Assembly (NCBI RefSeq): GCF_964204645.1
Contig: NC_134026.1
Location: 11,369,950 to 11,433,949 of the forward strand
DNA: 64,000 bases
Source: Tubulanus polymorphus
Taxonomy: Eukaryota > Animalia > Nemertea
Direction of reading: 5' to 3'
Part shown: positions 1 through 46,372 of the stretch, one piece after another
How positions within the stretch are numbered: the first letter of the stretch is position 1
Layout: each line of letters opens with the position of its first letter
Made by a program: the position numbers and the translations under genes
Notes under the pieces: generated by a model
What the model was told of the DNA's origin: nothing
The model's database searches: none
The model's input: the letters and a program-made list of their open reading frames with translations, nothing else

Positions 1-454
1 GATCTATTAAAGGTATATTAATATTTTTTACCATTGCAACATATACTAATGGTGCAATAAATGTTGATAATTATTATAATCCTGAAATAACAAAAGTAGA
101 AATAACTATCGAAGGAATAGCAAATAAAATATTTTGTCAAGGAATGAGAATGATAGATCAATGGCCAGAAATTAGAAAACATTTTATGAATGAAAAAGTG
201 AAATCATCTGAAAATTGTAATATTAATCAAATTGATTATTATACAGGTAATAAATATGCATTATGGTTAGATTTTAGAACAACAGAGGATAATTCATTAC
301 ATGGTTCTGGAAAAAACTACAGAACACTAAAGATGGAATACAATTATTCATGACAAAGAATAAAGGAATCAAAAATCTTAAAATGCACATTTATATTATA
401 TCTGACGCGCAATTAAATATTGTAAATTCTCAATTAAATAGTGTTATGTATTAG
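1..454 (+). pseudogene. Major capsid protein C-terminal part (element A), 1-nt frameshift near 311-317
   Basis: Near-identical to 34617-35072 (RSIKGIL...LWLDFRTTEDNSLHGSG...SDAQLNI). The A-run is one base shorter than in B. Confidence 0.8.
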
Positions 455-486
455 AATTTGAACTTTAATAAAAATTTATATAATAA

Positions 487-1338
487 ATGGAAGGAGGTAA
501 AGTATATAACCATATTCCATACATCGATACACATGAAAATAATAATGGCTTATATTATGTAATACCTTGTAATATAGCTTTGATATTTGATCCTATTTTC
601 AAAATTTATAAAACTAAACTAATAGAAATCGATAATAATAAAAGTGGTGTTGTTGATAATTTAAGTAATGTAATTGATAATAATGTAATACCTTCTACAT
701 CTAATAATGTAATACCTTCTACATCTAATAATGTAATACCTTCTACATCTAATAATGTAATACCTTCTACATCTAATAATGAAATAATATTAAATATTAG
801 TGAAAATAGGAATTATTGTGATTATTGTAAAAGTGAATTTTCAAACGCTCCATCAAATTGGAATAATCATATGAATACAAATTCACATATTATTAACGTA
901 ATAGATCGTGTTGGTATAAGAGAATTTATAGAACGCCCATTTAATTATGTTACAAAGTTTGTTTCAAATAAAAAAGTAGATTTATATAAAGATTTATTAG
1001 GTGAATTTTTATCTAAGGAACCTAGTAATGATGAATTAGATTTACCTGCTGCTAAAAAAATATTAGAATCAAGCATTGTAAATACAATATTAAGGTCAAA
1101 CACTAAGAAAGATGACAATGAAAATATAGTTACAGGAAAGCGCATTGATAATAAAGATTCTATGAAACTGAAATCAGAAAATAAAGATATAGTTGAGATG
1201 ACTAATAAGTATATCAATAAACCAATTATTGATGAAGATATGGTAGAGAATTTGAACAAATTGTTAGGGTTTGATGATGAATTGGAGAGTGATGATGAAA
1301 GTGATTTAGAAAGTAATTATCTAACACTCAAAAAGTAA
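487..1338 (+). CDS. Uncharacterised Maverick protein with a C2H2-type zinc finger and 4 x NNVIPSTS repeat
   Basis: 283-aa ORF with CDYCKSEF...HMNTNSH motif; homologue at 35105-35848; ATAAATG start. Confidence 0.75.
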   Translation: MEGGKVYNHIPYIDTHENNNGLYYVIPCNIALIFDPIFKIYKTKLIEIDNNKSGVVDNLSNVIDNNVIPSTSNNVIPSTSNNVIPSTSNNVIPSTSNNEIILNISENRNYCDYCKSEFSNAPSNWNNHMNTNSHIINVIDRVGIREFIERPFNYVTKFVSNKKVDLYKDLLGEFLSKEPSNDELDLPAAKKILESSIVNTILRSNTKKDDNENIVTGKRIDNKDSMKLKSENKDIVEMTNKYINKPIIDEDMVENLNKLLGFDDELESDDESDLESNYLTLKK

Positions 1339-1339
1339 T

Positions 1340-1652
1340 AAAGGTTGAAAATTGTATAAAATAATAGTAAATAAAAACCGGGGTTTTAAGTATTTATGTA
1401 TCTAATACGTATTTAATACGTATTATTTGAAAATACCTTAAATTATATTTTTTTTAAATTTATATTGAAACCTCAGTAATATTAAATAACCTTTATTATT
1501 TTCAAACTTATTCATATATTAGTTGAAAAAATAAAAATAAATTGGTTGCAAATTGTATGAATAATATTTATTTTAAAAAGGGAGTTTTAAGTATTAATGT
1601 ATTTAATACGTATCTAATACGTATTTAATACGTATTAGATACATAGATATAT
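1340..1652. repeat. AT-rich intergenic block: two imperfect direct repeats containing 11-bp GTAT(C/T)TAATAC iterations
   Basis: GTTGAAAATTGTAT...GGGGTTTTAAGTATT-like unit occurs twice, each followed by GTATYTAATAC tandem copies. Homologous block at about 35905-36241. Confidence 0.7.
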
Positions 1653-1658
1653 AAAGAG

Positions 1659-2270
1659 TTATTTTATAAATTTATATTCATATGGAAATTGAAACCTCAG
1701 TAATAATTTTGAACCTTTATTATTCTTTAATTTATTCATATATTCATCATATAATTCAGTAGGTATAATATCATTTTCTTCCAATGATTGTTGCATAGAT
1801 TTTTTAGATTTGTTATAAAATAAAACTAGAAATCTTATATTATCCCTAAAGTTTTTAACAATTGAATTATATTTTTGATTTAAAACCCATGTTGTTATCC
1901 CAAAATGTCTCCCAGAGAAAGCTAAATAACAAAACTCACTTTCTCTAACTTTTGAATCAAGTAAATTTGCACAATCATCTATAATGAATAATGTATTTGA
2001 TCCTTTATAAGTATCAATTGCTATTTCTATACAATTATCTAAATTTTCTTTTACTGTTTTAGGATCTAATATAATAAACTTTTTTATCTTAACTATATCT
2101 CTATTATATGTTTTATTCATTTCAAAAGTAGGACAAAATAATATTATATTATCAAAATGATTCTTATAAATAGTTTCTAACAAGTCTAATATGAAATGTG
2201 TTTTACCACAGTTTGTTGCCCCAGTTATTAATATATTATGCGGTTCAAATATAAATAAATCTTTATTCAT
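1659..2270 (-). CDS. A32-like / FtsK-HerA DNA packaging ATPase (element A, intact)
   Basis: Walker A GATNCGKT, Walker B LFIIDD, GRH arginine-finger motif, and conserved Q in WVLNQ. Confidence 0.92.
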   Translation of the reverse strand: MNKDLFIFEPHNILITGATNCGKTHFILDLLETIYKNHFDNIILFCPTFEMNKTYNRDIVKIKKFIILDPKTVKENLDNCIEIAIDTYKGSNTLFIIDDCANLLDSKVRESEFCYLAFSGRHFGITTWVLNQKYNSIVKNFRDNIRFLVLFYNKSKKSMQQSLEENDIIPTELYDEYMNKLKNNKGSKLLLRFQFPYEYKFIK

Positions 2271-3354
2271 TTATTCTTTTAATTTTACTAGATAAAATCC
2301 ATTCATTAAATTTATCATCATATCCTTTATATTTCACCAAAGAATACTTTTTTCCTTTAAGAGTTTTTGTTTTCAATACTTTTTCTATTTTGTATTCTAT
2401 TTCATCTGGATTTGGTACGAGTGATAATTCTTGTTCATAGAAATAACCTAATATTTCTTCATCTTTTAGATCTTCTAGTTTATAAACAAATGGTTTAGTT
2501 AATATTATCTTTTTAATCTTAAATATTTCTTCTGTAAAATTAGGGGTATAACCTTTATAAAATGTTTTTCTATATTTAGATATTCTAACGTGTTGTCCTA
2601 TTTTAAATTTAGGTTCACCGAAATCATGTGTAACAAATGCTCCATATAAATTATTCCAAACTATTTCTGAATTATCTTCTTTTCTAGCTTGTATAGGTTT
2701 CATATTTATAGAACTATGTTTAGAATTATTATAACCTTTCACTAAATCATCTAATACATCGATATATTTATATGTTTAATTAGCAGTAAAATATTTCCAC
2801 ATTCTAGTTTTCAATGTTTAATTAAATCTTTCTATAATAGATGCTTTTTTATCTGAATGTGTTGAAAAATATTCTACATCGTTATCAGATAATAGTTTTT
2901 TGAAATGTTTGTTATAAAATTCCTTACCTTCATCAAATTGTATCTTATCTGGAATAGCTTCTTTAAATATTGATTTAAAAGCATTTGTTACTTCTATACC
3001 AGTTTTATTTTTGATTGGAATTGACCATGCGTATCTACTGAATATGTCTATAACATTCAGTATCCAGAAATATCCTTTGTTGTATTCTTCTAAGTTCTTC
3101 ATGTCAATTAAATCAGCTTGCCATTGTTGATCGATATATGAAACCATTACTTTTCTTGTTAAATAAGTTTTATCCATTTTCTTGTGGATTTGATGTGTTG
3201 GTTGATTTTGTAACCATGATTTTAATTCACTATATTTTATATTACCATTTTCATTATCAGATTTAATTTTATCCCATAATTCTGAAACGTTAGAATATGA
3301 TACTTTACTTTCTGAGTTGTAATATAAATCTCTTAAATATTGTTCTTTTTTCAT
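2263..3354 (-). pseudogene. Retroviral-like (RVE) integrase with C-terminal chromodomain (element A), disrupted near 2780-2820
   Basis: WQADLIDM, VIDIFSRYAW, QFDEGKEF, SIIERFN DDE motifs; C-terminal YKIEKVL...LVKYKGY..KFNEW chromodomain; split across two ORFs. Confidence 0.92.
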
Positions 3355-3399
3355 CTTATTTTAATCCATTAATAATAATTTAGATTAAGTTTCAATGAC

Positions 3400-3729
3400 T
3401 TAATGATTTGATTTATTTTCTGGTATGATAGGTTTATTATCATTGGAATCATCTTTATCATCAGATTTGAATTTTGATTTATATATTACACCGGATGATA
3501 TAATAATTGTGATTAACCCAATTGTAATATATAAGTAATTATTTCTTCCACTATTAGAAGAACTAGATGGATTATTATTTGAATTAATATCAGATAAAGT
3601 CTGTGATTCATTTATATCAGTTAATTTCTTTTTCTTAGCTGTTTTTAATTCTGAAGATCTTTTACCTAATTCTCTTGCCCATTTGATTTGTTTCTCAGAT
3701 CTAACCTTTTTCTTAACGCCATCACTCAT
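3400..3729 (-). CDS. Small basic single-transmembrane protein (element A)
   Basis: Lys-rich N-terminus and hydrophobic YITIGLITIIISSGVIY; homologue at 39596-39955, which has a longer C-terminus. Confidence 0.7.
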   Translation of the reverse strand: MSDGVKKKVRSEKQIKWARELGKRSSELKTAKKKKLTDINESQTLSDINSNNNPSSSSNSGRNNYLYITIGLITIIISSGVIYKSKFKSDDKDDSNDNKPIIPENKSNH

Positions 3730-3739
3730 TTATTTTAGT

Positions 3740-4330
3740 TTATTTTTGTTCTGATTCATTTTCTGTTTCGCCGTATGGTTGTAGTACATCTGTTTCGTTC
3801 TTACCTGATTTATATTCCATAGGCTTGATATTCGAAAAAAATATGACACCAGTAGAAATTAATGTCATAACCGATCCTAATTGGAATGAAGCATATCCAA
3901 CCCATTTTTGTAATTCAGTCATAACTAAGTAGTCATTTTTCAAATCACTATATAATTTATTTTCATCATCAATTGGTATTAACTGGTTACATAACTTAGA
4001 GTAAAATTTAACAATACCATCTGAAATAGAATCATTTATTCTAGCTAATCTTGACTCTTCATAAATCTTAAAATATTTTATTACTTTATCTGGTTTCATA
4101 GAGTTTAATTCTTGAAAAGTAATGATTCTATTTAAAAACTCCTTAGATTTCCCGCCAGCAATAAGTAACTCAAGATGGTGTTTACAATATAAATAGCATT
4201 CATAATCTATATTGTTATTAACTTGAATATTATTTTCAATTTTGGTCGGAATATCCTAATTATCACTAATACCTAAATCATCTAATGTTTTTTCAATGCT
4301 GGTATTATTCTTACTCGATTTCTTTGACAT
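3740..4330 (-). pseudogene. Uncharacterised Maverick protein (element A), internal stop codons
   Basis: Homologous to 38999-39585 (KHHLELLIAGGKSKEF...ARINDSISDGIVK); ATAAATG start at 4330. Confidence 0.7.
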
Positions 4331-4632
4331 TTATATTAGAGAAATTTAATAAGAAAAATATTATAAGTATTATAAAATGATACCAGTATCTCTTTAGATT
4401 AATACTAGCTTAGTTAAAGGTAAAGAATTTTAGTATTAGTTATTGTTTTTTTTAGTATTTTTTATTTGTGATATAAAGTATTCTTTTTTGAAAAGAAAAT
4501 ATTAAAAAAACAATAACTAATACTAGCTAGTTGAAGGTATGTAATTTTTAATACTTTTTATTTAAAATCTATTATTCTTTAACCACTCATTAAAGACTCA
4601 ACGTATTGTTCATTATTCGGATCATTGTTCCA

Positions 4633-5247
4633 TTAATCAATAAATTTCTTTGCCTTTGTTAACTGTTCTAAATATAACTGTAAATCTAGTTTATTAGATT
4701 TGATTTGATTTTCTTTCTTTTCAAGAGGTCTTAAATTTTTCCAATTCCAAATAAGTTCTTTATTGTATTCATCATTCATGTTAAATTTAGATATTGGTAA
4801 CGTATGATCAATATGAAAATAATCTCCATAATTATCTATATTCATTTGACTATCGAATTGAAATATAATCCATGATTTGAGAAATTTATCTCTACAACTC
4901 AACAAATTAGATAATGTTTCTGAATGTGTTTCTTTGTTGTATAATTGTGTTAATCTAGTCCTTAAACATTGTTTCAATCTAAAATTAAGATCTGTTTGAT
5001 ATCTTTCTCTCATATATTCTGTCATATAATCATTATAAGATTCTCTATTATCTTCTCGATATTGTTTGGTATATAGTTTAAAACAAGTTTTACAGCAATA
5101 TTGAAAACCATCTTTGCTAATCTTACGCTTACTAAATTCTGTTATAGCTAATTTATCTAATTCACACTTAGAACACTTCTTGTAGTATATATTTATAACA
5201 CCAGTGTTATTTGTAATATTGATAGTTTGTGGTTGTTCTGGTTCCAA
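4633..5247 (-). pseudogene. HNH / endonuclease VII-like (His-Me finger) nuclease with N-terminal zinc ribbon (element A)
   Basis: CSKC...CKTC zinc motif; FHIDHTLP...WNWKNLRPLEKKEN..KSNK; start codon is TTG where B has ATG; premature stop about 18 codons before the homologous end. Confidence 0.82.
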
Positions 5248-5384
5248 TTATTATACATATTTTTTTACAAAATTGGTTAATATTTTAGAATTCTCTTCCA
5301 TTTCTGCGACCAACGTCATCCTTTTTCATTCCTCGTTGCTTTTGATGAGTCGTTTCGATTCCTTGATATCTAAGTCATACCACT

Positions 5385-5587
5385 GGCCAAAACCGCTCTT
5401 ATAGGAGCGTTTTTGCTTAATGCGCATGCGCTAATCATAATTATATATTCATTCTGTAAATTCTGTAAAATAGAAACAACCGACATAAAATATCAAAACG
5501 TGTTCGCATTAGGCAAAACCGCTCTTATAGGAGCGTTTTTGCTTAATGCACATGCGCTAATCATAATTATATATTCATTCTGTAAAT
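5385..5587. repeat. Tandem duplication (about 125-bp period) containing a short hairpin
   Basis: AAAACCGCTCTTATAGGAGCGTTTTTGCTTAATGC..ATGCGCTAATCATAATTATATATTCATTCTGTAAAT occurs twice. Confidence 0.8.
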
Positions 5588-6574
5588 AGAAACGACCGAA
5601 CATAAAAATTCACCAAACAGATTTACACAGTACATTATACAAGTTGTTCAGTCCTTTCTTCCAATACATCATTTGATTTCTATATATAAAATCTATAATT
5701 ACAAACATTTTTTCAATTGCTGGTAAATATTTAACTACATCAAGAAATGTTAAACTTAATCATTGGAGTCTTAATGTTTTTGAAATTCTTATATAGTTTC
5801 TTCGTCGATCTTTTGGTGTTTCTACGCCAGTTTCTATTGGTTCGATATCCATTGCTGTTGATTCCTCAGTCAGAAAGAGTATCTTGAGTTTCTCTATCGC
5901 TTCTTGATGCGTATGACGTTTTATCAATCTAAAAGATATTAGCGGCAACTCTATATATCTAAAAGATATACTAAATACACTTAAATATATAAGGTTTCAT
6001 ATTTAATAGCCTTAATAACTACAAAAAACAGTACTTACATTTAGATTTAGAATTGTAAACTATAAACTCCTAATTGCGTTTCGAGAGAGAATATCCTAAG
6101 CGTTATGTTACATCGTCTATTCAGTTCTGGTGCGATTTCTAAATGAACACGTCTGCAATTATGACACGTCATCTCTATTCAGAGTTCCGGTACACCTTCT
6201 AGAATGTTCTACGCGTTTGCAGTATTATGTCTCATATGTCTCGGCGTCATAGTAACAGCTTTGACAGCTGTGAATTTATAGATTTATTCCATAGCTTTTT
6301 ACATGAAATGTATATAGGCTCAAATAGAATCATGTTCTAGTATAAGCAAATGCTATGTATTAAATCAATCACACTTTACTAACACTTTTAATGTTTAAAA
6401 TTCTAACTCATACAAATATGAATATTGAAATAATGTTTAAAATATATCTATATATCTATTCTATAAGAGCTCGTTAATTAGTCGTTACTTTTTTACTAAC
6501 ACTTTTATATTGAATAATCTATCAATTTATATGTTATTCATATATATTTTATTCATGTATATAAATATTTTAAG

Positions 6575-6956
6575 AGTAATAGGGTTTAGTTGTTCTAGGT
6601 TAAAGGTTGAATGGTCGAGCTCATTAAAAACAAAATATTAAAAGTAATTTAAAACTATAATATATTTTCATAGCCGTGTGTATTTTAGTTAAATAATAGA
6701 ATAATTATTATTATTTGAATACATTTGATTATATGAATTTGTGTATTGTAAATAAATCAATTGGTCGCGGAGCGGAGCGGTAGCGAAGCGGAGCGACCAA
6801 TTTAAATTATTAATATCTAAGAATAAATGTTTAGTTATAATATAAAATACACACGGCTATGAAAATATATTATAGTTTTAAATTACTTTTAATAGTTTGT
6901 TTTTAATGAGCTCGACCGTTCGACCTTTGATCTAGAACAACTAAACCCCTATTACT
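6575..6956 (+). repeat. Terminal fold-back palindrome of element A
   Basis: Arms 6575-6687 and 6843-6956 are reverse complements except four G-T pairs, one A-G pair and a 1-nt bulge. Inner stem AATTGGTCGC/GCGACCAATT (6759-6802) encloses a GCGGA-repeat loop. Confidence 0.92.
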
Positions 6957-7015
6957 AATGTTTTTAAATCTTTTGTTATATTATTTGTCTTGATCTCCAG
7001 TACGTAGGCGTCCGT

Positions 7016-8064
7016 ATTCTTGATGATCAATGGAAATCCACATTAAATGTACTATCTTCAGTTGATAAATCATAAACATAATCTGTTGGATTGGATGTTT
7101 CAAATAAATCTCTAACTTCTTCTGTTAGCTCATTTTCTACATACGTTAATTCAAATATATTCGGTTTATCTTCTATAATTCCTAAACGCATATGAAAACC
7201 TAATGAATTACACAATATATTTAATCCCGCTATAGCAACTTTTCCTTTTTGTGCAAAGGTTATTACTGGAGATCTATCAAATTTTTTCCACCATCTGCAG
7301 CATAGAATCCAATCAAGAACCATTTTCTTAAATAACATTTTGCATTTAATACAAAATTGGGCACTATCCTTTCTTTGGTCGAAGTATTACCTTTGACTAT
7401 TGCATGAATATAGAATCCATCATTATATTATATAGCAAAATCTTTAGGATTATTTATAAGTATTCAATAAACTGCTGATGATTTCATATGATCCATGATT
7501 ACTGTATGCGAATAAACTTCTTCACAGTATTTTCTAATTCTTTCTAATAATTTCAAATCTTGATTGCATAAATACCAACAATATTGAGTGCGACACACAT
7601 ATTTATATACGCCGGCTGAACCATCACCCATAAAAATCCTTTAATAAAATATTCTTTTTCTTCTAATGTTTCAGGTACTATGTAATAGATATTATTAATT
7701 AATTCATCCAATGATATATGATTCATTCTTGGGTAAAATCTTTTATGTAATAATCCATCACCAACTTTTATATCAGTTGGTTTGACTTCACCATTTTGTT
7801 TAATCAAGCTATGATCTTCAGTAACATCTACAACCCTAACTTAGTTCCAACTCTATAAATCGTTTTATTTGTTTTATGTCTAATAATATATTTCAATTTT
7901 GTCCATCCATTTCTTGTCCAAACATTCATTAATCCATTTATTTGTGTTAATTATTTTTCACCATATGCAATATAAAGTTCATTTTGTTTAGGCATTATTT
8001 CTGAAATTCTTATTAATATTTTATTATTATATTCTAATACTATTGGGGTGTCGGCTGTTACAGA
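7016..8064 (-). other. Intein with LAGLIDADG homing endonuclease inserted at PolB motif C (frameshifted)
   Basis: N-junction YFD/SVTADTPIVL; block B VDVTEDHSL; LAGLIDADG-like FIKGF.MGDG and WFLIGFYAADG; block F DYVYDLSTEDSTF; C-junction GFPLIIKN/TDAY. The equivalent site in B reads YFDTDSY with no insert. Confidence 0.9.
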
Positions 8065-9439
8065 ATCAAAGTATAATATTGCAATATGTTTCTCCCTAAA
8101 AAGTGGTTGTAGAACATTATAATAAAAATCATACATTAATAATTTTGATACTTCTAAAACAGTTGAACCTATAAAAATTGGTTTATTAACTTTCATTGAT
8201 GTTCTTATTAATTTTACTACTGTTAAATAATCTTCAAAACTTTTATTTCCTAAATGTCTAGCACTTGATTTCAGGTGTCTCAATCGTTCAAAACTATTTA
8301 CTAGTTCAATATTATTTCTATTTTGAATATTTTCACAAGTTTTTCCATAAAAACTATTATTCATTAACTTAAAAGAGTCTTTTTCGAAATCTGTTTTAGA
8401 TATGGTTCTCTGTTGAGTATTGAAATCTATATATTTTTCTAACCACTTCGATTGATTAAATTCAATATATCTATGTACTTTTTAAATTTCATTCCTTGTT
8501 TAAGATAAACTTTTAACATTCTACAGTGAACAATATAATTATAATTATTATTTTGTGTTAGTATAAATTTTTTCGGTTTTATTTTTTTCAGGTATTTACA
8601 TAGATAACTATCATCTAAGGCTAAATGTTCTGGACAATAAGGTAAGTTTCTATATTTAAACTTCATGTTATCAGGATATTCTAAATCAACTACAAAGAAA
8701 TAAGTAATTGGTGCATCATCTTTTAAACTAATAATTGCACCTTCCCAATCAGTTTTATCATCATCTTCAACTCTGTTTATATAACATTTTTATATGGTTG
8801 AGGTTGCATCATTGCCCAACCATATGAATTATTGGCGTCAATATATAATAATTTATATTCATCATTTGCTTTAAAATACCTATTACCCATGACCCCACTA
8901 ATTCCACCTCTAATAGATTTTTCAAACAGTAATACCATGTCTGGTTCTTTTAATAAATCTAATTCTACTTGAATATATTTTAAACCACATTGCCAGGTTA
9001 AAGAAGGACTTGAATAACAGTAACAAGGGTCAACATTAAAATGATTTCAATTAACTTCTCTAAACATCAGCCAATATCATTACATCTGATTTTAAATATG
9101 TCAACTAATTCGCCATGATTTTTAAAATTGAAATGATTCCATATATTCAATGTTTTATTAAACACTTCATCTTTCACGTACTCATTTTTTAATTCATCAC
9201 AATATTGTTCTTTCAATAATTTCGTTTCTTTGAAATCATCGTGCGTTTTATAAAATGAGTAAGGTATTGCGCCTTTATATCTTAATAATTTAAAGTCTTG
9301 TATATCTGGATAATAATAACGCGTTATTATAAAATCATCGTCAACTAAACTTTTTGCTAAATTATCAAATGAACTTGCTAGAATCTATAAGAATCTAAAA
9401 ATCTAATGCAACCAAACTGAAATAAAATATAATTTTCAG

Positions 9440-10326
9440 GGGCCGTTTTCACAAAGCATAATTAACTTTAATTATAATTAGGACCTAAATCATGATTAAA
9501 TTTCCTTAATCATGATTAGTTAATTACGATTAAAATTCGGTTTCACGAAAGGGTTTAATTACAAAATTAACTAATTACATAATTAGGCAACTTAATTACA
9601 ATTAAACTGTATCAAAATGGCGGAATTTTAGACAGCCATTTGCTGTCCAAGCATCAACAACCTTCCTTGTTTAGAGGAAAAGAGAAATTCACTCCTTTGG
9701 GAGTTAAAGATTGCTCTGAAAGGTCTCAGGAACCAGTGGAAAAACTTAGCAAGATGTCTCAAAAGTTTTTAAATAGAAACTCACCTCCAGTCAGCAAAAT
9801 AAAATCCTCGTAAATGGGGTTTATTTCCGAGCAGTGATTAGCACTTTTTAACACTAACTCCATAGATATGTACTCTACTGACAGAAATCTATCATATGTA
9901 TGGACAAAATCAATTAATTCAACACTTCTAAGTATGTGGTGGTCGTGCTGACAAAACATAGGACGTTTGAAAATAAATCAATAGAATTTAGAGTATTGAC
10001 ATGCCTTTTTTACAAAAGGCAAAAATCCAAATTATTTGAGCCAGACAATCTGAAAAACTGAATAAGTGTAGGAATTGCCGTCGTCAATTAATAAACACAA
10101 AATTCCATGAATAATATCGGCAGCTTTTTGTTTTTAATAATAAACTAATGATGATTAAATGGTTTAATTACACTCTAGAGGAGAATTAAATTTTGTAATT
10201 AACTTAATTATAATTAAAGTTAATTACGTTTTGTGAAACACCTAACTTGATTAAATCATGATAATTTAATCATGATTAGTGATTTAATCATAATTAAGGG
10301 TTAATTACGCTTTGTGAAACCGGCCC
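9440..10326. mobile_element. PIF/Harbinger-type non-autonomous element (MITE)
   Basis: TIR GGGCCGTTTTCACAAAGC / GCTTTGTGAAACCGGCCC, 3-bp TSD CAG. Removing it restores PolB codons ATA TCT GAA AAT. Confidence 0.88.
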
Positions 10327-11741
10327 CAGATATCTTAGCTATTAGTTTAAAATCATATTTTCTTATATTTGCATCATTTATAGCTTTATGTTCTTCTATT
10401 TTTTGATTGATTACACCCAATTTTCCTGATAGTTGTTTTATAAATAAGTAGATATCATACCCTCATAAATTATAAAATAATATTTGTACGTTGTTAACTT
10501 TCTTAGCTTATAAGTTGCAATCTTCATGAGCAGCTCCACGATATTTTGAATTTAAATGATCATGATCTTTAACTTTTTTAATCAAATGAGTAAAAACGTT
10601 TTTCACAGTAACAACAATGAGTTGCATAATTAAAATCAACTACATCTTCTTTGGTCATAAGTATTATTTTATTTTCATTTAATAATTGTGCAAAATCACT
10701 TTTTAATTCTATAATTTTATTACAAAATTCACAAAAACTACATCTTCACCTCTAAAAGAAATATATTGACTTTCATATAATTCAGGATAATTTGATTTTA
10801 TATAAATTCAATGCGCAGCAGCTCTTTGACGAACTTTCTAAATTGTACTTATAATTGGTGGGTCTTGTATTATGTCTTCATTTAGTTCATTCCCTTTATC
10901 CATTGATTTTAATAACTGCCTTTTATTAGGGTTTTCTGTTTCTTCACAGAAAACCCTATTGAAATTCGCGTGATTATTATTATTTTTTTTCCCTTTTCCA
11001 CATAGTTTTTGTTAAAAGTGTAAAGGCTTCCTTACCTTACCGCTGTCGCCGATACAATCCGTATGATGTCCTTCAGCTCACTTCAATCTCCAGATACTGC
11101 ATAGGAATTTTGATAAATCCACGTTATAAAGGCACTGTCGAGCCGAAAACATCAGAAATTTTGCTCCATTCAATTAGTAGCCATGTTGTGTTTTCTTACC
11201 GATATTTCTCTCTTCTTTTCGAGGAAGAGCTATCGAATAATTCCCTCTCTTCTCCACAATCAATTTCAAAGTCAATTTTATGAATTCATTGCTCAGCGGG
11301 TCCGAGTCCAAGAGTTTACGAGTCTGGCGTTCGCGTGTCTGACAGGTTTACGGCATTTGTTTGTTACCTCTTTAATATTTTTGATTTCTTGTTATTCCGG
11401 TTATTTTATTTAAGTATATTGCTGATCACTTCATGTAACCAAAAGCGTCAATAAACAGACTTTGAATTGATCAAGTTTAAATCAAGGTCGTTGAGTCGCG
11501 GAAGGCTCCTAGAATTACGTTCGTCTTCGTCTCAGAGAGAAAACAAACGACAGAAAAGTATCAGGTGATTATCGATAGCCTACAACGGCACAGACAGTTG
11601 ACAAACAGTGTTAGGCCTGTGCCGGTTGGTGCGTACTGGGACTAAATATACTGGTTGGTCAGTTGGTTCGGTTGTGAAGTGTGGAAGCTAAGATTATAAG
11701 AAAGCCTACCGGTATTTATTTGTCTATAGGCCTATTATATA

Positions 11742-12330
11742 GAAGCCAATACCATTTTAAGTACGTAGTTGTTAACCGCACTTGACTGTACGGTGATCTC
11801 CTCAGGTTAACCGCGTACGTGAGGTCCCTACTAAGTATATAATGCCATACGTGAGTTCCTAGTAGCCAATACCATTTTAAGTACGAAATTGTAACGCGTA
11901 CGTGACTGTACGGTGATATCCACAGGTTAACCATACGTGAGTTCCCTACTTACGCCGTACGTGAGTTCCTAGTAGCCAATACCATTTTAAGTACGAAATT
12001 GTAACGCGTACGTGACTGTACGGTGATATCCACAGGTTAACCGTACGTGAGTTCCCTAAAAACGCTGTACGTGAGTTCCTATAATCTGCAAACGCGCATG
12101 CGTAAAAGAATAGAGTTTGGGTTAGGTGAGGCTAGGCTATTTGTAAATCAAATTTCATCCACCCACCAGTTACGTTCTGTGGCACAGTGGGTAAATCACT
12201 GGACTACTACTGGATTTTTTTTTCGTTTGGTTTCGAATCCCAATATTGCAAGTCTGAGCGTCAACGTACTCACATATGGCTAACCTGTAGAAATCACCGT
12301 ACAGTCACGTACAGGTAACAACAGCGTTTT
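11742..12330. repeat. Tandem/inverted repeat block (about 110-120-bp units), probably a MITE remnant
   Basis: AGCCAATACCATTTTAAGTACG...TGACTGTACGGTGAT occurs three times, with an inverted copy near 12280-12320. Confidence 0.6.
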
Positions 12331-13370
12331 ATGTATTAAGTGAGTACGACAAGCCTACCATGCCTATGTACTACAAACACAACTTTTTCCCTCTCGTCGG
12401 CCCTACAGTGATGTTACTATAACTGGTGCCATTATAATATGGATAGGATTTGGTCAGGACTAGCCTAAAGTCTAATTCAGTCTATGTACTAATTCACTCC
12501 ATAGGCCTATTTTTAAAACAATACAGTGAAATATTCACACGCAGAAAGGCTAATTGATTTGAGCCATGTGATTAAGTTTGGCCAGGCCTTCTCTGACCTG
12601 CTGACATTAATAGTCAAACCAAAACGTTCATGTGGTCACGGCTTGTATTACCAGAAATCATTGTAGGCCTGTACATTTTGCTGTTCGTAGGTTTGGTATA
12701 CCGATTTCTCCATTCTTGACTGATAAGTGTACGGTACATCTGTACGCATTATATAATTGTTCCAATGGGAATAGGGCCTATTGATTGGGCTTATTATTTC
12801 CTGCTTTAGAGTACTGAAATAAACCTAATGTTCATTCAAATATCCAACATCGGTGAAAGTTTGATTAATAATGTATACATGTACTGTAGGTTTTCATGTT
12901 GTATGAATATTTTGCAGTTCAAATGGGTATGATGCTGATTCCAATGTCAAACGCATGAAGTTAGATGGTCAAGGACAGTCAACACCAAGATATCTCTCTT
13001 CGACCGATGTTGTACCATAGAAGATCTGATTCTTTCAACTCAAGGAAAGTGATTCAACACAATCGACATAACACTGGAATAGGTTTGCAGTAACTAACCG
13101 TTCATTTCATTTAGTCCTATGTACTTTTTAGCCTATTTGGATTTGATTGTAATTGAAACTCTGGAACTGTTAACAAAAGACAAGTAAGACAAGTTGAAAA
13201 AACACAAGTTAGGCTTGATTCCCATGTTCAAATTTAATTCAAATTTATTTTATTACATCATATTTACAAAGCATATCATTGGTTCATACAGTAATAAAAA
13301 TTAGGGCAGAACAAATATTATTACAGAAACTCCAAAAAGGCAATGAATTTCTATGACTAAATGAACATTG

Positions 13371-13930
13371 TTTTTAGCCCACTTGGGACTTTAGTCCCAG
13401 CGGGCTATTGCGTTCACTTTTCGTCCGTCGTCCATCCGTAGACGGAAATCAGTTATTTTAGGAAGTTTTGAAGACGCTTCAATGTAATGTCTTGATATTT
13501 GGGTTTCACATGTATCTACCCTAGACACATCTTCAGCTCAAAAACTGACCCTGTCAGAATCAAGATGGCCGACTGGCAGCCATTGTTGTTCGCCAAAATC
13601 AACACTTTTTACACATTTTTGAACTTTTTGAGGGAAATTTTGAAGATGCTTTGATCAATTACCTTGATCTTTCGGATATATGTGAATGCCCCTGGGCCCA
13701 TCAGCATAACAAAAATTGGGATACGGACTCAAGATGGCCGTCCTATGACCTTTTTTAGTGCCCAAAAATGTCAATTTTGGCCCGAATTCTGAGTTTGCCA
13801 TTTCTCATTGCAATTTGTGATGGGTATTCTTTGAAAAGGGATGTTTTATACCTTTGATACCTGTATTGTTAGATTGTTGAGCATTTGGAACCACTTCCCA
13901 AGTGGGCATGGTGTCCCTGGACCCCTAGTT
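13371..13930 (+). mobile_element. Second HINE/DINE-like family, nested, complete copy
   Basis: 5' TTTTAGCCCACTTGGGAC..GTCCCAG hairpin, CGTC-type microsatellite, 3' subTIR TCCCAAGTGGGC and stem-loop GTCCCTGGAC then CCCTAGTT; second copy at 58064-59213. Confidence 0.78.
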
Positions 13931-16896
13931 CTAATAACTCAGATCAAGAGTGACTCTCCCGTTTATTAGGAAACACACGCAACTAGTGGAATAGGTTTGA
14001 TTTACACACATGTTGCAGGTATCAATTGTTTATCACTGTAGAATTTGTAATCCATAAAAGCCAAAATCAACATCAGCCGGAAACCCAGACCAAATCAATT
14101 CATAATTTATTGATTGAATCTACACTACGATATATGTATTTATTCAAATATTTCAATAAAAACATTAACTTCTTAAATCTAATCTATTCTAAATCATAAT
14201 ACGTTCTTATCTGTGAATTCACTCAATCTATCGGCTCAGCAGGTGCTTAAGATGAGTTCTTAATAGGACAGATCCATTTTTAAGGATGGTGATAATACAG
14301 TATCATGATGTTTGAATGCCAAAATAAGTGCCTGGTCAAATATATTAATATTTGTGATTGTACGTCCACGTATGTTCGGTTTCAAAGCTGAATCATATTT
14401 GACGTTTACACAGTGGTTGCATATTAGGTTCGAATCTGTCAATGCATTTTATTCTATGTATCGATATTTCAATTTACTACAATTCCCATCATTCTGAATG
14501 GCTTTACAGAAAACCCGTCATCGCTGCTTTGCAGCTATATTTGTATATACATTTTTTTATCTTGGTCAGTTAATTCTTTATTCAACGATTCAAAATCTCC
14601 ATATATTAAAAATGGAACAATATTTCTAAACTTATGATTAGTAAATTTCAACTTCTGTTTGCATTATTAATTTACAAAAATCTTTTTTATCACATATTAC
14701 TCTTTATGTTTTAAAAATGCATTCTCTGTCACCGACTTAGATAAACATTTTCAACATAGATAAATTTATAGTGGTTGTTAAAATCACTTTCTGTTCGAAA
14801 GAATAAATCTATTTGTTTTAACCACATATAATGTTCATTTTCAACTTGTTATAATGTTTTGTGAAATATAAAGCTTCTAATGTATTATCTTTAATATTTT
14901 CACCTCTTGTCTCTGGTAGTTGCATTAATTAAAATACATTTATTTTCTAATTATTAACTTTTTCTATCTAAGGTATCATTTTTATAGTTACTGGGTATTG
15001 ATCAGTTTTATATAATGATTATTATATCCGATAATTTGTTATTCTATATACATGTTCTTCTGTTGGATGTAAAGAACTTGTAATCGACCATAGAAAACAT
15101 TTATTATCTTCATTTTGAACATCTATAACTGCTTTTGTTGTAAATGGTAGTTTACCATAAGATGATGCTTCAATATCCTTCTCTGTTGTAAAGTTTGAAT
15201 CATTTGTTAACATTTTATTACTTTTTGATGTTTTATTTCTTTTTGTATTATGAAATTTAAATCTAAATTATAATTTCATTCAATGATAAGCCAACCTTCA
15301 AAATATCTCTCTTCAATTGTTTCTTTTATGTCTAGTGAATCATTATAACTTTTAACATTGTCCATATAAGGTTTATTGAAAATATATTGAGTTTTTTAAT
15401 AGATGTTTTTACTTGTTGAGGTTAATCATCAAAATATGCTGTTCTTAAAATATTTCTAATTAAACTTTGTTGATGTTTTTGTGACTCAAGATGTCTATCC
15501 TAATTCCTTTTACTTATAAATTCATAACAAACATTACATTTAATTTCATCTACATCTTTTAATCGTTCTTTTCTTTAATTTGAACTATCTGGTGTCTCAA
15601 AATCTATAACATTTTTTTAATGATTTTTAGTTTTTTTTGTGTGATTTAGCAATATATTTTTTTTTCAGTATGGACAATAATATTGATTTTTATTACCATC
15701 ATTTTGTTTTGTTTGTTGTTCACTCCCATTTATAAGGAAAAAAATTACGAGTGGTGATGAGTGATGTGTCGACCTCTCGACATCTGGCCTGAAAGCGCAT
15801 TTTTCCAATTACTGACTCTTCCTAATTCTGTGATGATTCCAAATGTGGCATATTTCATCTAAATCATGCTGAAGAATAAATTGCATAATAATATCCAATG
15901 TTTTATGTGATCTAAAGAAAATATTTCTAGAAATGTTTAAATTCATCTATAACATTAATCTTTTCCCAACGAGATAATTGCATGAGTTTTCATCTGTAAA
16001 ATATTGACATACAGAATAGTGTCAATGCTTTGCCGATAGCGCTCTTCGCTTATTGATAAGTGCATAAAGCGTAGGTCATTCCTGTCAATACATACGCTTT
16101 TCTTGATGGCGGGTTACAAGGAGCTTTTGTACTGTAGAACTATTACGCAAAGCTAAAGTTACAAGGCGTTTACACCAAATTCAAGTCGACAACCATGGGT
16201 AGCAGGCACATTACATTGAACTGTATCCTGCCAACATGATGCCGACATACCAGAGCAAAAGGGCATAAATGTATGGCCGCACTTGCGTAGCGTGACCTCA
16301 AATTCAATTAACAGAGGCATAGGTCTGCTGATTGGCAAAAATTACAGCATGATACTGGTCTAATTTATTGGGGCACGAATAAATGTGTTAATTAGATCAG
16401 TGCAGAACAAAACTTAAGCAATTCAAATAATAATGTAATCGCGAGTTCGAAGATAAATACACAGATGATAGCAATTTGTGACCCGACAATAAAGAAAATA
16501 GTGAGAATATCAGATACATTGGAGAACGCTTCGAATGGGGTTACTGAGGAAGTCACAATATTGTCCAAATAACCGCACATTAGCTGAATGCGCCAATATA
16601 TGAGTTAAAGAGAGATCAGCTGGTACATCGATATAAACAGCATATAATCTATAAACGATCTTATCGACAAAGCCTTCTGCCACGATGTCCCTGATGAAGC
16701 TAACCACTCCCCCCGGGTCATGAAACTGAAAAAGACAAATTGAGGGTTGTATGCGATCCCCCCCCCTAAGTTTAAGGACGTATGTCTAAATGTTGTTGAG
16801 GGCTTCATTTCGTGAACTCTATTGGTGTGGATACACCATTCCGTGATGGCCCAGTTGCTGACATTAAATTCATGCTCCATCACACGGATCGCTATT

Positions 16897-17177
16897 CAAA
16901 TATGAAAATAACAATAATTTCTACTTGAATTAGTCGCGTACACTACTAATTCAAGTAGAAATTTTTATTATTTTCATATTTGGAAAATTTCTCAACGATT
17001 CAACCTTTAACCTGAAAGCCCATTACCCCTATTACTCTTAAAATATTCATATACATGGATTAAATATATATGAATAACATATAAATTGATAGATTATTCA
17101 ATATAAAAGTGTGAGTAAAGTGTTAGTAAAAAGGTAACGAGTAATTAACGAGCTCTTATAGAATAGATAGATAGATA
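16897..17177. repeat. Left TIR of element B (truncated), including partial terminal hairpin 16897-16982
   Basis: Reverse complement of 41661-41930; loop CGCGTACACT at 16935-16944. Confidence 0.92.
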
Positions 17178-19364
17178 AACATTATTTCAATATTTATATT
17201 TGTATGATTTAGATTTTTAAACATTAAAAGTGTTAGTAAAGTGTGATTGAAATAATTCATATTTAAATCATTGAACTTCTAAAATCAATTTAAAAAAAAA
17301 AATTTAGTATTAAAATGGAAGCAAATAAGTACTACTGTTCAACATGTAATATCAATATAGATAAATCCCAAAAAGCAAGACACAATAAAACTAAAACACA
17401 TTTAGAGAATAAATTGAAATTAGAATATGAAGATGATATATTAGAAACTAAATTAGATGAATTAAAGAATGAAAAAGAAACAAACAAATGTGATACATGT
17501 AATCAATCATTCAGTGATAAAAGATATTATAAAGAACATTTAAAATCTAAAAATCATATTAGAAATAATATTTTAGGTGAGGATTATTTTGATAATGATA
17601 ACGATAAGAAACATAAGACAATTAAAAGAATAAGAAATAAATTAAACAATAAAAGACCATACATGGAAGATGTAAGAAATTATATTAATTCATTAGATAA
17701 TAAAAAAGGTATAGAGATAACCGAAGCATTTAAAAGTGATATTGGTCCAGCAGCTATCGAGTTTAAATTTCATAAAGGAAAAACATTAGAAGAAAATAAA
17801 AAACATTAAGAAAATATGAAAAATATTATAAAAATAATTACAGATGTTGAATACCCTAAAATTAGTATATCAGTTAAAGTAAAGTTTATAAAATCTGAAG
17901 ATAAACCAATATATAATATAAATTCTCATTCACAACATATTATTTCAAAACAACATATAGATGAAAAATTAGATAAATGTTATAATGAAGTAAAAACTAA
18001 AATAGAAGAGAAATATTTTGAAGGATCTGGTTTAATATTTGATGAAATAATATTTACGACTTTACATGTTTATAACACAAAATATAATAAGTTAACTAAA
18101 TCAAAACCAATTGATGAAAATAATTTATCATATTATAAAGAACCAGATATTGAAGCATCTAGTTATATTAAACTACCATTTAAAACTAATGCTGTAATAA
18201 ATGTACACAATTTTGATGATAAATGTTTTCTATGGACAATTATAAGTTGCTTACACCCAGTTGAAGATTATAATAAACATACTTACAGATTAACAAATTA
18301 TAAACAATTTGAAAATAATTATAAGATATATAATTATCCTGTTAGAATTAAAAATATCCCAAAAATAGAAAGAGATAATAATTTAAGAATAAATGTATTT
18401 GATTTAATCAAATTACCAAATACAAAAGGTAACAATATAAAACATTATACATTAGAACCTTTATACCTATCAAAAGATTATGATTCAAATGATGTTATAG
18501 ATATACTATATTATGAAAATCATTATATGTGGATTAAACAAATCGATTTATTTTTTTAAATCAGAAAATGATCACCATAAAATATATCTTTGTAGAAAAT
18601 GTTTACATAGATTCAGTAATGAAAGTACATTATTAAATCATAAACAATTATGTGAAAATCATGATTATTGTAAATTAGTTTTACCAAATGAAAAGGATAA
18701 AATATTAGAATTCAATAAATATGATTACAAAAATAAAGTACCATTTGTAATACATGGAGATTTTGAATCATTAAATAAAGAATTAACTGATCAAGATAGA
18801 AAAGAAATATATTATAAAAGAAAGAAATTAAATTCTAATGAAAATGATTTTTCAGATGAACCACCAAAAACAAATACAATTAAAAAGATTCATCAATCAG
18901 CTGCAGCTTTTGGATTATATATTAAATCTGATTATCAAGAACTAATTAAAAGTGAACATTATCATTATAGAAATGAAAATGTTATCAATCATTTTTGTGA
19001 CTTATAAATTGAATATGAAATAAAATTTAATGAAAAGTTAAATGAAAATATAGAAATTATAATGACAGAAGAAGATAAAGAAGCATTTGGGTTTGCAGAT
19101 AAATGTTATTATTGTGAAAAGATATTTAATTATAAAGATAAAAAAGTAAGAGACAATGATCATTTGAACGGAAAGTTTAGAGGCGCTGCACATGAGAATT
19201 GTAATTTACAAGCTAAGAAAATTAACTTTGTACCAGTTATATTTCATAATCTATCAGGATATGATGCACATTTATTTATCAAACAAGTTATGTCATAAAA
19301 TAGAAGAAATCAATAATGAAAGAGAAAGATTAAATTCAAATAGATCAAAAGATAAAATACCAAC

Positions 19365-19989
19365 TGTTGCCCACTGGCAACAGTTTTTCTTTCAGGTCTG
19401 TTAAGTTTGAGTGAATTTAGTTTAATATCTTTTTTGGTCTTTATTTTGCGTGCTTTATGTTAGTATGTTGTTGTTAGGTAGTATTGGTAAGCTGTTGGTA
19501 AGCTGTTTTGTGTGGTTTGAATTCATATTAATCTGGTATTATGTAGTGTTGGTGAGCTGTTTTGTGTGGTTTGAATTCATATAAACTGACATTGTGTAGT
19601 GTAGGTAAGCTGTTTCATGGGTGGTTTAATTTTCCTTTACGTTTGCTCTGTACAACTGTACTTCTGTGCATTCGCCACAGTATTCTGATAGAGGAAAGAC
19701 ATAGGCTCTCTACAACTAAAAAGAGTTGTAAGTTAAAATTATACATTTCTAAATGTCAACTATTTATTGCATTTATCGAGGCCTTTTTTTCTCCGTAATT
19801 TGAATTATTATTTATCACATTTTTAGGGTTTAATTGTGTATTTTTCAGTTAACCACTCGCTCGTGTTCACTGTGTATCTGTAACCTGTGCGTTTCACACA
19901 TTCGAGAATAAAGTGCGTTAGACCTTTTATGATTGTAGCCGTCTTGTCCTCGATTTGATAAGTTCTATGTCCAACTCTGGTTTGGGACA
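19365..19989 (+). repeat. 5' LTR
   Basis: TGTTGCCC...GGGACA; direct repeat of 25680-26297. Confidence 0.97.
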
Positions 19990-20072
19990 TATTGTTAAAA
20001 CTCTTTTTATTTAAATTTCATAACGTTGAAGCTATATAATTCTATCGCTCAAGCTCTTGAATTCCGTTAAGA

Positions 20073-21047
20073 ATGGCGCCAGAAGAGATAGCTGTAAAGG
20101 GCTCGGACCCTCCGAGCATTGATAAGATTTCTAAATCGCGTTCGTCGTTGGCTGGTTGGCTAACTAGGACCGTTGACAGTTGCAGAAGCCAAGTCCCGAC
20201 GCTGAACAGTAAAAGCGCAATACTATTGCTTAAAGACCGTTTAGTTACTGCATTTGAAAGGTTAAAACAAAAACACCAGCAGTATATTTCAGTAGCATCA
20301 GAATTGGACTTGGAGATTGCTGAGGCCGAGTTATGGTTCGAGCCATATAACTCGGCGGTTGTAAATTGTTTAGATTTAATTGACTCTAAAATTGACAGCA
20401 TCATCAGTGATTTCACATCTGTTACTTCCGTTAAGTCTGTTCTGGCGACCGGTCAACAAACTTCGTCTGTTCCCCTGGATGTTTCTTCAAGTGCCACCGT
20501 CAACCATGGTCAATCCGCCTACCAGGACGCAGCGATTCCCGGCGATACATCATCAGAGGCGATCGACGATTGGATCGACAAGCTTGTCATCGGACAGGAG
20601 ACTGTCGTGGACGTGCCTACATCGAGATCTTCAGATTCTAACGACGAGGAGATCTTCAAGGCGTTCACCAAACTGAGCTGTGACCGAGACCTACCAAAGG
20701 TCGTGTTCGATGGATCCGCTCTGATGTGGCCACGGTTCGTCGATCAGTTTTATGAACAAGTTCATTCAAGGTATGGTCTTGTAGATAGCAGGCGTATGGA
20801 CCTGTTACTCTCACATACTAAAGGTGAGGCAAGAAAGATGATCCAAGGCCTGGGGTATTCAGGCCGGAACTATGCCCAAGCTCTTCAGGAGCTCAAACAT
20901 GTCTTTGGTCATAAAGTGTTAGTCGCCCGTGCTTGCCTGAATAGTATAACTGGACCTGTTATACAGTCGACCCCTACGTCCATTCGAGATTTCTACGTGT
21001 CAGTTAGACTGTATTGCTGTGTTAAATCAACTAAAGCACACTTATGA
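20073..21047 (+). CDS. gag: BEL/Pao Gag N-terminal region (frameshifted into the next ORF)
   Basis: LPKVVFDGSALMWPRFVDQF...KGEARKMI...ELKHVFG, typical of the BEL gag (DUF1759-like) region. Confidence 0.85.
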   Translation: MAPEEIAVKGSDPPSIDKISKSRSSLAGWLTRTVDSCRSQVPTLNSKSAILLLKDRLVTAFERLKQKHQQYISVASELDLEIAEAELWFEPYNSAVVNCLDLIDSKIDSIISDFTSVTSVKSVLATGQQTSSVPLDVSSSATVNHGQSAYQDAAIPGDTSSEAIDDWIDKLVIGQETVVDVPTSRSSDSNDEEIFKAFTKLSCDRDLPKVVFDGSALMWPRFVDQFYEQVHSRYGLVDSRRMDLLLSHTKGEARKMIQGLGYSGRNYAQALQELKHVFGHKVLVARACLNSITGPVIQSTPTSIRDFYVSVRLYCCVKSTKAHL

Positions 21048-24000: not shown

Positions 24001-25580
24001 TCCTTTAAATGTAAAAGTGTTCTCTGAATAAAACAAATGTTGCCGTTAGTAAAAATGAAAATTCTGTTGCTGATTCTAGCTTTTTTGAATTTAGTCGTAT
24101 TTCGGATTGTACAGATGTCCATCGATTCTCATCATGGTTCAAGCTACGGCGGCATGTAGCCTGGATTCTACGTGCGGTGAGAAAATTCTCATCAGTCATA
24201 GCCCGTTTGAAAGTCGGCCGAGGCCGGGAAGGTCGCCTTCTATTTCGATCAGAGATAACTGAAGCTCAGACTTCCTTGATCAAATCCTCCCAAGATAGGG
24301 CATATAGGGATGAGATTGAAGCCCTTGAGTGTGGAGAAAATATGTCCAAAAGAAGTCCCTTGCTCCCGTTACGTCCTTTTTATCACCGAGGTGTCCTGAG
24401 AGTCGGCGGTCGTTTGACAAACGCAGTGATACCATATGAGGCTAAGCATCGGGTTATATTGCCCTTTGGTGACCATATTACGCGCCTTATTGTTGCTGAT
24501 GTACACGAATCTCTTTATCATGCTGGGCCGGAACGTAATTTCTGAGGTCAGGCAAAACTTTTGGCCCGTAAAGGCCCGTAGCTTGGTGCAAAGCGTAATT
24601 GGTAAGTGTTCAGTTTGCCGTCTCAGTAGAATCAACCCATCGGTCCCTATTATGGCTGATTTGCCATCGGCCCGTGTTGCTGGTTTTACCCGTCCTTTTA
24701 CTTATACAGGTATCGATTACTTTCGTCCCGTGTTCGTAAAGCTTGGTAGAAGCACAGTTAAAAGATGGTGCTGTTTGTTTACGTGCCTCGTAACCAGGGC
24801 TATTCACTTGGAAGTTGCGGATAACCTGGAAACTGATGCGTTCATTTTAGTCTTGCGTAATTTCATAGGCCGAAGGGGTCCGCCATCCGAAATTTACAGT
24901 GATAGCGGAACTAACTTCGTGGGCGCTGATCGCGAACTTCGCGAGGCATTAGAACGGCTTAATCAAGTGCAAGTCCATAATTGCCTACTCAAACGCGGCA
25001 TTGTATGGCATTTTTCTCCTCCGTCAGCCCCTCATTTCGGCGGGGCTTGGGAACGGTTAGTGAAATCGTCGAAACGGGTATTGAAACAGATTCTTAAGGG
25101 GCAGCTGGTTATCGATTCCGTATTACGAACTGCGTTAATAGAAACGGAGTCCGTCATCAATAGTAGGCCATTAACATACAACAGTACCGATCCAAACGAC
25201 TTCACCGCCATTACTCCAAATCATTTCTTGCACGGCGGTCCAAAAACGATTAATGCACCTGATATATTCGAACCAAAAGAAATTTGCCGTCGCAAAAGGT
25301 GGCGGCAAAGACAGGTCATCGCCGACCATATTTGGCGCCGGTGGACACGCGAGTATCTACCGGTAAGTGGCAGTGCGACGGGCTTGGTGTCGGGGTCAAT
25401 GACCTGGTCATTCTTGTGAATAACGATGTTCCTAGGGGTAAATGGGAATTTGCTAGGGTCGTGAACGTCTGTGCCGGGCCTGACGGACGTATAAGGGTGG
25501 TAAAGGTAAAAACCCAAAGTGGTTCTGTGCTTACCCGTCCAGTCAGTAAAGTGGCTGTGCTGGAGGAGTCTGTGTGTTAG
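21019..25580 (+). pseudogene. pol: BEL/Pao Gag zinc knuckles, protease, RT, RNase H and integrase (several frameshifts and stops)
   Basis: Triple Cys-His knuckles, LLDSAS protease, FYVDDM RT, VFCDASE RNase H, GIDYF / SDSGTNF / GAWERL integrase. Confidence 0.95.
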
Positions 25581-25679
25581 ATTTGGCTTGTTTGTATACG
25601 AGATGTTGTGTGTGTTACTAATACATGTTGATGATAGTATATTGTGTTGACGCTCTATGTGACGTCAAAGGGGGTGGCA

Positions 25680-26297
25680 TGTTGCCCACTGGCAACAGTT
25701 TTTCTTTCAGGTCTGTTAAGTTTCAGTGAATTTAGTTTATTATCTTTTTTGGTCTTTATTTTGCGTGCTTTATGTTAGTATGTTGTTGTTAGGTAGTATT
25801 GGTAAGCTGTTGGTAAGCTGTTTTGTGTGGTTTGAATTCATATTAATCTGGTATTATGTAGTGTTGGTGAGCTGTTTTGTGTGGTTTGAATTCATATAAA
25901 CTGACATTGTATAGTGTAGGTAAGCTGTTTCATGGGTGGTTTAATTTTCCTTTACGTTTGCTCTGTACAACTGTACTTCTGTGCATTCGCCACAGTATTC
26001 TGATAGAGGAAAGATATAGGCTCTCTACAACTAAAAAGAGTTGTAAGTTAAAATTATACATTTCTAAATATTTATTGCATTTATCGAGGCCTTTTTTTCT
26101 CCGTAATTTGAATTATTATTTATCAAATTTTTAGGGTTTAATTGTGTATTTTTCAGTTAACCACTCGCTCGTGTTCACTGTGTATCTGTAACCTGTGCGT
26201 TTCACACATTCGAGAATAAAGTGCGTTAGACCTTTTATGATTGTAGCCGTCTTGTCCTCGATTTGATAAGTTCTATGTCCAACTCTGGTTTGGGACA
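25680..26297 (+). repeat. 3' LTR
   Basis: Matches the 5' LTR apart from about five substitutions and a 7-bp indel counted by eye. Confidence 0.97.
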
Positions 26298-41651: not shown

Positions 41652-41660
41652 CTATTTATA

Positions 41661-46273: not shown

Positions 46274-46372
46274 AATCAATCTAATCATGGGAACAATCTT
46301 TAATAAAATTGAAAAAAACATTCAATCATACGTTGTATTGGATAATTATAAACATGAAATGGAATCTTTAAA

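Follow-up and report, generated by a model that had tools for sequence, protein, structure and literature searches.

A pseudogenised Pol-c-site intein in a Maverick DNA polymerase, from a lineage likely of giant-virus ancestry and likely maintained by homing

The window, by which we mean the whole stretch of 64,000 nucleotides analysed here, contains Maverick sequences among other transposable elements. Element B (16897 to 41930, plus strand) is a Maverick bounded by terminal inverted repeats (16897-17206 and 41626-41930). On the same strand it carries a PolB recognised by homology (17315-19362 and 26298-28216), a capsid-like ORF (33953-35072), an integrase with a chromodomain (40095-41051) and a packaging ATPase of the Pox_A32 type (41112-41651). 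The hallmarks of Mavericks/Polintons (protein-primed PolB, retroviral-like integrase, packaging ATPase and terminal inverted repeats) are all present in it. ORF 34284-35072 has no Pfam match and resembles Capsid_NCLDV clusters by its features (0.97, of low recognition value), while no maturation protease was found among the ORFs scanned. Two similar ORFs of this element (36399-37053 and 37974-38761; 76 to 78% DNA identity), also without Pfam match, share a HIDHVLP motif that we take to be HNH-nuclease-like. A BEL/Pao LTR retrotransposon (19365 to 26297, plus strand), with LTRs that are 98% identical and CCAAC repeated on both sides, sits within the PolB of element B, so that this polymerase gene is also interrupted. 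BEL/Pao elements are a class described as metazoan (PMC3118150), and the domains of this copy indicate that the host is likely an animal. No host gene was identified in the window.

The left end of the window (1 to 6956) is a rearranged copy of the B family. Its B-family part (1-5278) includes integrase and ATPase and is 84 to 90% identical to the right part of element B; an inversion lies near 1636. To the right of element B, the regions 43949-49999 and 54400-61200 hold pieces of a Harbinger-like transposase with a Myb/SANT ORF, a Mutator-like piece, a 31-bp minisatellite and a 154-bp tandem repeat.

Between the rearranged copy and element B lies element A, which consists only of a PolB relic on the minus strand (15691 to 6956) whose nearest full-length proteins are B-type polymerases. 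Its upstream parts, placed by homology, are heavily decayed (10328-10972 and 14553-15691), and the gene is split by inserts at 9437-10330 and 10975-14553. The first of these (894 nt) has inverted ends (78% over about 80 nt) and is skipped by some contigs, so it is present in some copies only. The palm/exonuclease part (8065 to 9437), 68 to 84% identical to P0306 in five pieces, ends in the YFD of motif C (8073-8065). The other half of the motif, TDAY (7015-7004), begins a short C-extein (6956 to 7015) of these residues plus 16 codons. Terminal-like repeats abut its end (6354-6956, palindromic over 6582-6956) and cut the polymerase 60 nt past the insert described below.

The two halves of motif C in this protein-primed Maverick PolB are separated by 1,049 nt (8064 to 7016, minus strand), a length that is not a multiple of three. 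All the motifs that the first-pass annotation had read from the insert were found where it placed them. An N-terminal splicing region (7811 to 8064) holds block A with Ser1 (SVTADTP, 8064-8044) and block B (TEDH, 7822-7811). Alignment to P0001 and P0250 delimits an endonuclease core (7290 to 7634) with two LAGLIDADG-type motifs, MGDG (7634-7620) and FYAADG (7307-7290), in which the codons for both catalytic Asp residues are retained. The C-terminal splicing region (7016 to 7077) consists of block F (VYDLST, 7077-7060) and block G, which ends in KN (IIKN, 7027-7016). Homology and profile evidence together describe a Pol-c-site intein with Hint and double LAGLIDADG endonuclease domains, now pseudogenised: its motifs are spread over three frames by four frameshifts (near 7835, 7634-7667, 7285 and 7035), and there are three in-frame stops. 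This copy is incapable of splicing or homing. Ser1, the DH of block B, the block F Asp, the terminal Asn and the +1 Thr are nevertheless all present in it, as they are in 7/7 full-length relatives compared.

The insert belongs to a multi-copy family in the sequenced organism. Contigs from 3/3 sequencing runs, which come from one organism and one study and possibly from the source sample of the window, span its 5′ junction; one is nearly identical to the window and two (X2 and X3) are about 91% identical. In run X1 the contig depth summed over the insert reached 8,600 to 20,100, whereas single contigs nearly identical to it had about 44; the sum does not measure copy number. Relative to the neighbouring polymerase it was 0.37 to 0.51, a ratio that is likewise not a copy number and is unusable as evidence for empty alleles.

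Several lines of evidence identify the insert as an intein. A homologue search with the nuclease piece retained, out of 63 candidates, P0001 alone; the intein of this PolB sits at YGD/TDS and can be aligned to nearly the full length of the insert, starting at residue one (E value of 1.6e-39). When all six frames of the window were scanned with a profile built from 110 Pol-c inteins, matches were confined to 8064-7042 (82, 76 and 38 bits); the best other match in the window scored 0 bits, and the best in three shuffled windows −2.6. Pfam gave a weaker picture for the decayed copy, with no Hint domain found on seven window pieces and LAGLIDADG_3 on one of three further pieces at an E value of only 0.12. 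In the unbroken relatives described below, Intein_splicing was detected in 6/6 (E values of 4e-8 to 9e-5), yet at 22.8 to 33.7 bits, below the curated cutoff of 35.8, as was also the case for the giant-virus-type P0001 (30.7 bits); LAGLIDADG_3 exceeded its cutoff in 5/6. One of them, P0250 (1,693 aa), combines PF03175 with Intein_splicing and LAGLIDADG_3. A PDB sequence search gave only weak matches to a Nanoarchaeum split intein (E values of 0.008 and 0.14).

The predicted structure of P0253, another of these relatives, is confident over the intein only (residues 99 to 431). There it matches the TliVMA intein 7QSU (Z score of 26.8, root mean square deviation of 4.1 and 304 aligned residues; Foldseek E value of 1.6e-17) and 2CW8 (Z score of 26.6). 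In this model the Hint fold is split by the LAGLIDADG domain; for the window copy the evidence is the profile match.

Animals possess Hint domains, and an insert that is out of frame and lacks a Pfam Hint match might be a Hedgehog-type Hint gene, a group I intron ORF or an assembly chimera. We consider such readings virtually impossible. The relatives carry the insert in one open frame with the polymerase, the nuclease lies between the Hint halves with Asn-Thr at the exit, Rfam returned 0 matches in 5000-45000, and diverged contigs span the junction; the open-frame relatives and the structural match of P0253 refute these alternatives. The end-to-end alignment with P0001, the profile, the tree described below and the P0253 fold support the proposal of a LAGLIDADG intein at the Pol-c site of a Maverick PolB with giant-virus kinship.

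The window copy is not the only intein of its kind. A scan of 1.84 billion representatives returned 134 matches, the first of which, P0121 (66% identity), is the C-terminal half of the intein, unbroken and fused in frame to a Maverick polymerase. A search with P0121 gave 25 longer proteins: six Maverick PolBs with an unbroken intein (P0250 to P0255), 18 with an empty site and one other, in a set of searches that was seeded with intein-bearing queries and so undersamples empty lineages. The unbroken Maverick inteins are 333 to 354 residues long. A scan for the end motif yielded 57 loci, 56 of them with giant-virus-type flanks and one (L049) a Maverick polymerase whose intein has a single frameshift. 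IMG/VR scans with the nuclease piece of the window and with P0121 gave no matches. The window intein is about 58 to 59% identical to that of P0250 (58 to 65% when P0250 and P0121 are both considered) and at most 43% identical to any of the 53 giant-virus-type rows compared. P0254 comes from a clam-derived bin labelled bacterial, and most other relatives have no host on record.

Short intein fragments were also seen on contigs of 48 to 282 kb (P0122, P0123, P0136, P0143, P0149, P0154, P0177, P0213, P0224 and P0239). Seven of these ten were placed in a tree, where they group with the Maverick inteins and resemble L049 (2-4189). This suggests another decaying multi-copy family that bears the intein.

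The Ser start and the penultimate Lys had been taken for noncanonical splice-junction residues, a view that the wider family contradicts. Motif C inserts could be parsed in 113/120 listed proteins, of which 112 start with Ser and 92 end in KN. In a larger set of 186 giant-virus-type Pol-c inteins, gathered with Ser-start queries, all 186 start with Ser, and the end is KN in 111/186 and HN in 55/186. The Mimivirus intein (P0112) has both features, and the paper describing it calls it canonical and names its first serine (PMC549080). TDA rather than TDS at the +3 position is found only in element A and P0121, which are tree neighbours, and is probably one inherited change. Two further peculiarities of motif C were observed. 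The unbroken polymerases P0252 to P0255 have ASD or SSD rather than YxD before the intein, and the giant-virus-type PolBs P0009, P0018, P0025 and P0002 carry two inteins in the motif with only TD between them.

Element B had been proposed as the empty allele 20 kb away. Its motif C is indeed uninterrupted (YFDTDSY, 27692 to 27712, plus strand), and when the two polymerase genes are aligned as DNA (69% over 1,429 columns), the match breaks off precisely at the junction 8065/27700. Around the insertion site, 13/15 and 10/15 flanking bases match. However, the B protein is only 65% identical to that of A and belongs to a different family; the nearest empty relative of A is P0256 (76%), and B is therefore not the allele of A. 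The same result bears on the scenario favoured in the first-pass annotation, a recent homing event between the coresident Mavericks A and B after germline coinfection with a large DNA virus. Such an event could accommodate the distance of only 20 kb between a filled and an empty PolB, the giant-virus type of the intein and the many copies in the runs. We regard it as highly improbable, since B groups with other empty polymerases, the intein of A is much closer to Maverick inteins than to giant-virus-type ones (see the identities above), and its placement follows that of its polymerase, so that the trees contradict a recent arrival.

To place the Maverick inteins we used a tree of 46 rows, with eight Maverick inteins, two fragments, 30 of the 186 giant-virus-type Pol-c inteins and six other-site inteins as the root; its Pol-c inteins are those of Mavericks and of giant-virus type, none archaeal. 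The Maverick inteins formed a single clade (100/99) nested within the giant-virus-type rows, a constraint that kept those rows together was rejected (p-AU of 0.0015), and a 30-row mixture-model tree concurred (Maverick clade, 98). They group with Pol-c inteins against the six other-site inteins (99/94), and they are inserted after the YxD of motif C, as in the Pol-c allele. The label "giant-virus-type" is based on domain content, flanks, one named member, Atlas leads and the fact that 13/15 viral loci sharing the end motif are giant-virus metagenome-assembled genomes (MAGs), and some rows may come from elsewhere. The row nearest to the Maverick clade is P0127 (94/96, but 82 under the mixture model). 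A search for the donor through P0127 gave best fold matches scattered over several giant-virus groups at 20 to 31% identity.

Within Mavericks, the polymerases were compared in a tree of 23 rows with the intein removed, from which five redundant outgroup rows, two near-duplicates, the non-Maverick P0273 and the later-found P0281 were left out. All nine intein carriers fall in one clade (100/99), with four empty polymerases, including B, nested near its top. Three state changes are required on these rows, and P0281 adds one. The deep branches of the polymerase and intein trees agree, and identities run in step (A and P0250 share 53% in the polymerase and 59% in the intein). The one conflict is shallow and weak, involving P0254 (p-AU of 0.03 on the polymerase and 0.12 on the intein). 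Since the intein tree follows the polymerase tree, one old capture is favoured over repeated recent jumps, and a Maverick lineage likely acquired the intein once, from a giant-virus polymerase. As for the exchange with large viruses put forward earlier, the giant-virus-type kinship agrees with it, but the trees make it look like a single old event at the base of the Maverick lineage.

Where this capture took place is a separate matter. One setting outside animals would be a protist whose cell was shared by giant viruses and a Polinton-like virus; the latter would have made the capture, and the intein-bearing polymerase would have entered animal Mavericks later. We see this as a substantial possibility, if one somewhat short of even. 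Aquatic metagenomes are the source of most giant-virus Pol-c inteins (the MAGs among the viral loci mentioned above), Polinton polymerases have been reported to move between phyla (PMC10748475), and most relatives lack a recorded host. On the other hand, the only hints of a host are animal ones (the BEL/Pao element in the window and the clam bin of P0254), and none of the 15 IMG/VR loci is an intein-bearing Polinton-like contig. A protist origin alters where the capture happened, not what the insert is.

The agreement of the two trees is equally compatible with plain inheritance. The intein might thus have been captured once, as above, and then been inherited with its polymerase and sometimes precisely lost, with no homing today. 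One gain plus losses accounts for the pattern, and there is no significant tree conflict on the intein side. An unused homing nuclease, however, is expected to decay, and both catalytic Asp residues are retained in 8/8 rows. In deep pairs the identity of the endonuclease (41 to 60%) equals that of Hint-N (42 to 64%), while that of the linker falls to 6 to 38%. Pure inheritance is therefore an unlikely account in our view, given that, over splits at about 45% identity, the endonuclease has changed no more than the splicing domain and that the nuclease domain is lost in 0/8 full-length Maverick inteins compared.

A close pair of filled and empty alleles was found in another family. In the P0251 cluster (121 members), five of the 15 members listed have the intein junction and one, P0281, is precisely empty. 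P0281 and the filled P0278 are identical at 571/573 and 169/169 residues on the two sides (99.7 to 100%), and removal of the in-frame insert restores motif C; the window copy has the same junctions, frameshifted. Taking out the insert restores a conserved motif C in the other unbroken relatives too. Nuclease conservation and near-identical filled and empty alleles favour continued mobility and are as expected if homing or loss continues, and such a pair can arise by recent precise loss as well as by homing. A GC-rich patch at the 3′ junction of the window insert was considered as a co-conversion scar and rejected, as an equal 40-nt peak appeared in 38% of 500 shuffles and the patch is absent in L049.

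By analogy with known inteins, the unbroken copies would splice by an acyl shift at Ser1, transfer to the +1 Thr and cyclisation of the Asn. With their TxDH block, Ser1, terminal Asn and +1 Thr they would excise the 333 to 354 residues and rejoin xD-TDS, restoring the catalytic motif. The endonuclease would cut motif C in empty copies of nearly the same sequence, which would then be converted when the break is mended with a filled copy as template; conversion might take place during co-replication or between integrated copies. Homing needs close DNA similarity, so the intein would track its polymerase lineage, while precise loss would regenerate targets. The reading we prefer, and hold to be quite probable, is that the window contains a broken LAGLIDADG intein at the Pol-c site, and that the one lineage to which it belongs likely goes back to a single capture from a giant-virus polymerase and is likely kept up by homing. 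The broader proposition, that an intein of giant viruses crossed from one class of family B polymerases to another and gave rise to a lineage still homing among Maverick copies in animal germlines, as a natural protein-splicing gene drive, is one we put forward tentatively and would not yet call probable.

These findings describe full inteins, forming a lineage, carried by multi-copy elements in at least one genome that is probably an animal's; the gene that holds them is viral and not a host gene. They also seem to record, at the sequence level, that giant viruses and a Maverick exchanged DNA, a point of relevance to whether animal Mavericks ever lived in the same cells as large DNA viruses. 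With filled and empty alleles that are almost identical, both a nuclease and its likely target are at hand, making the homing-cycle model directly testable in a transposon population; if it holds, a protein-splicing element may be acting as a gene drive that spreads from one endogenous virus copy to another in animal chromosomes.

According to PMC5784728, inteins are absent from metazoan genomes, and polymerase inteins occur in Phycodnaviridae, Iridoviridae and Mimiviridae. The literature searched yielded no earlier description of an intein in the polymerase of a Maverick or Polinton; subscription papers, Repbase and Dfam entries and supplements could hold one. The word "intein" does not occur in the main text of PMC8502044, PMC11131425 or 10.64898/2026.10.13.758929, and in the portions available of PMC12220804, PMC3671162 and PMC5718144 it is used in other contexts.

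The closest known system is the pol-c allele of the Mimivirus PolB (P0112; PMC549080), 40% identical to the window insert and 45% to the intein of P0250, with the same motif C site, Ser start, an IVKN-type end, +1 Thr, Hint and LAGLIDADG domains and a length of about 350 aa. Its host protein is a giant-virus PolB (PF00136), whereas here it is a protein-primed Maverick PolB (PF03175 in P0250) amid transposons in a cellular genome. Solved endonuclease-bearing inteins share the fold predicted for P0253, with PI-PfuI (1DQ3) and PI-SceI at Z scores of 21.8 and 16.4 after TliVMA and 2CW8, but are only 16 to 20% identical and reside in archaeal or fungal genes. Inteins in virus-like DNA polymerase genes have been described on nuclear scaffolds of Klebsormidium, Tetrabaena and a labyrinthulomycete (PMC10710043). 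As in our case, an endogenous virus carried a viral polymerase intein into the nuclear genome of a eukaryote; those hosts are not animals and the elements are not reported as Polintons in the text available, whereas here there is a multi-copy lineage with filled and empty alleles. In Polintons themselves, HNH and VSR nuclease domains are inserted in pPolB2 (PMC10748475), and the nuclease domains of these polymerases have been speculated to stem from "intein invasions" (PMC11161782). They resemble our insert in being nuclease domains within a Polinton polymerase and differ in that neither a Hint domain nor LAGLIDADG is reported for them in the accessible parts of these two papers. The polymerases studied here also have an endonuclease-VII-like domain elsewhere, apart from the intein. 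The intein allele itself is known; what is new is the class of host protein that carries it and its genomic setting.
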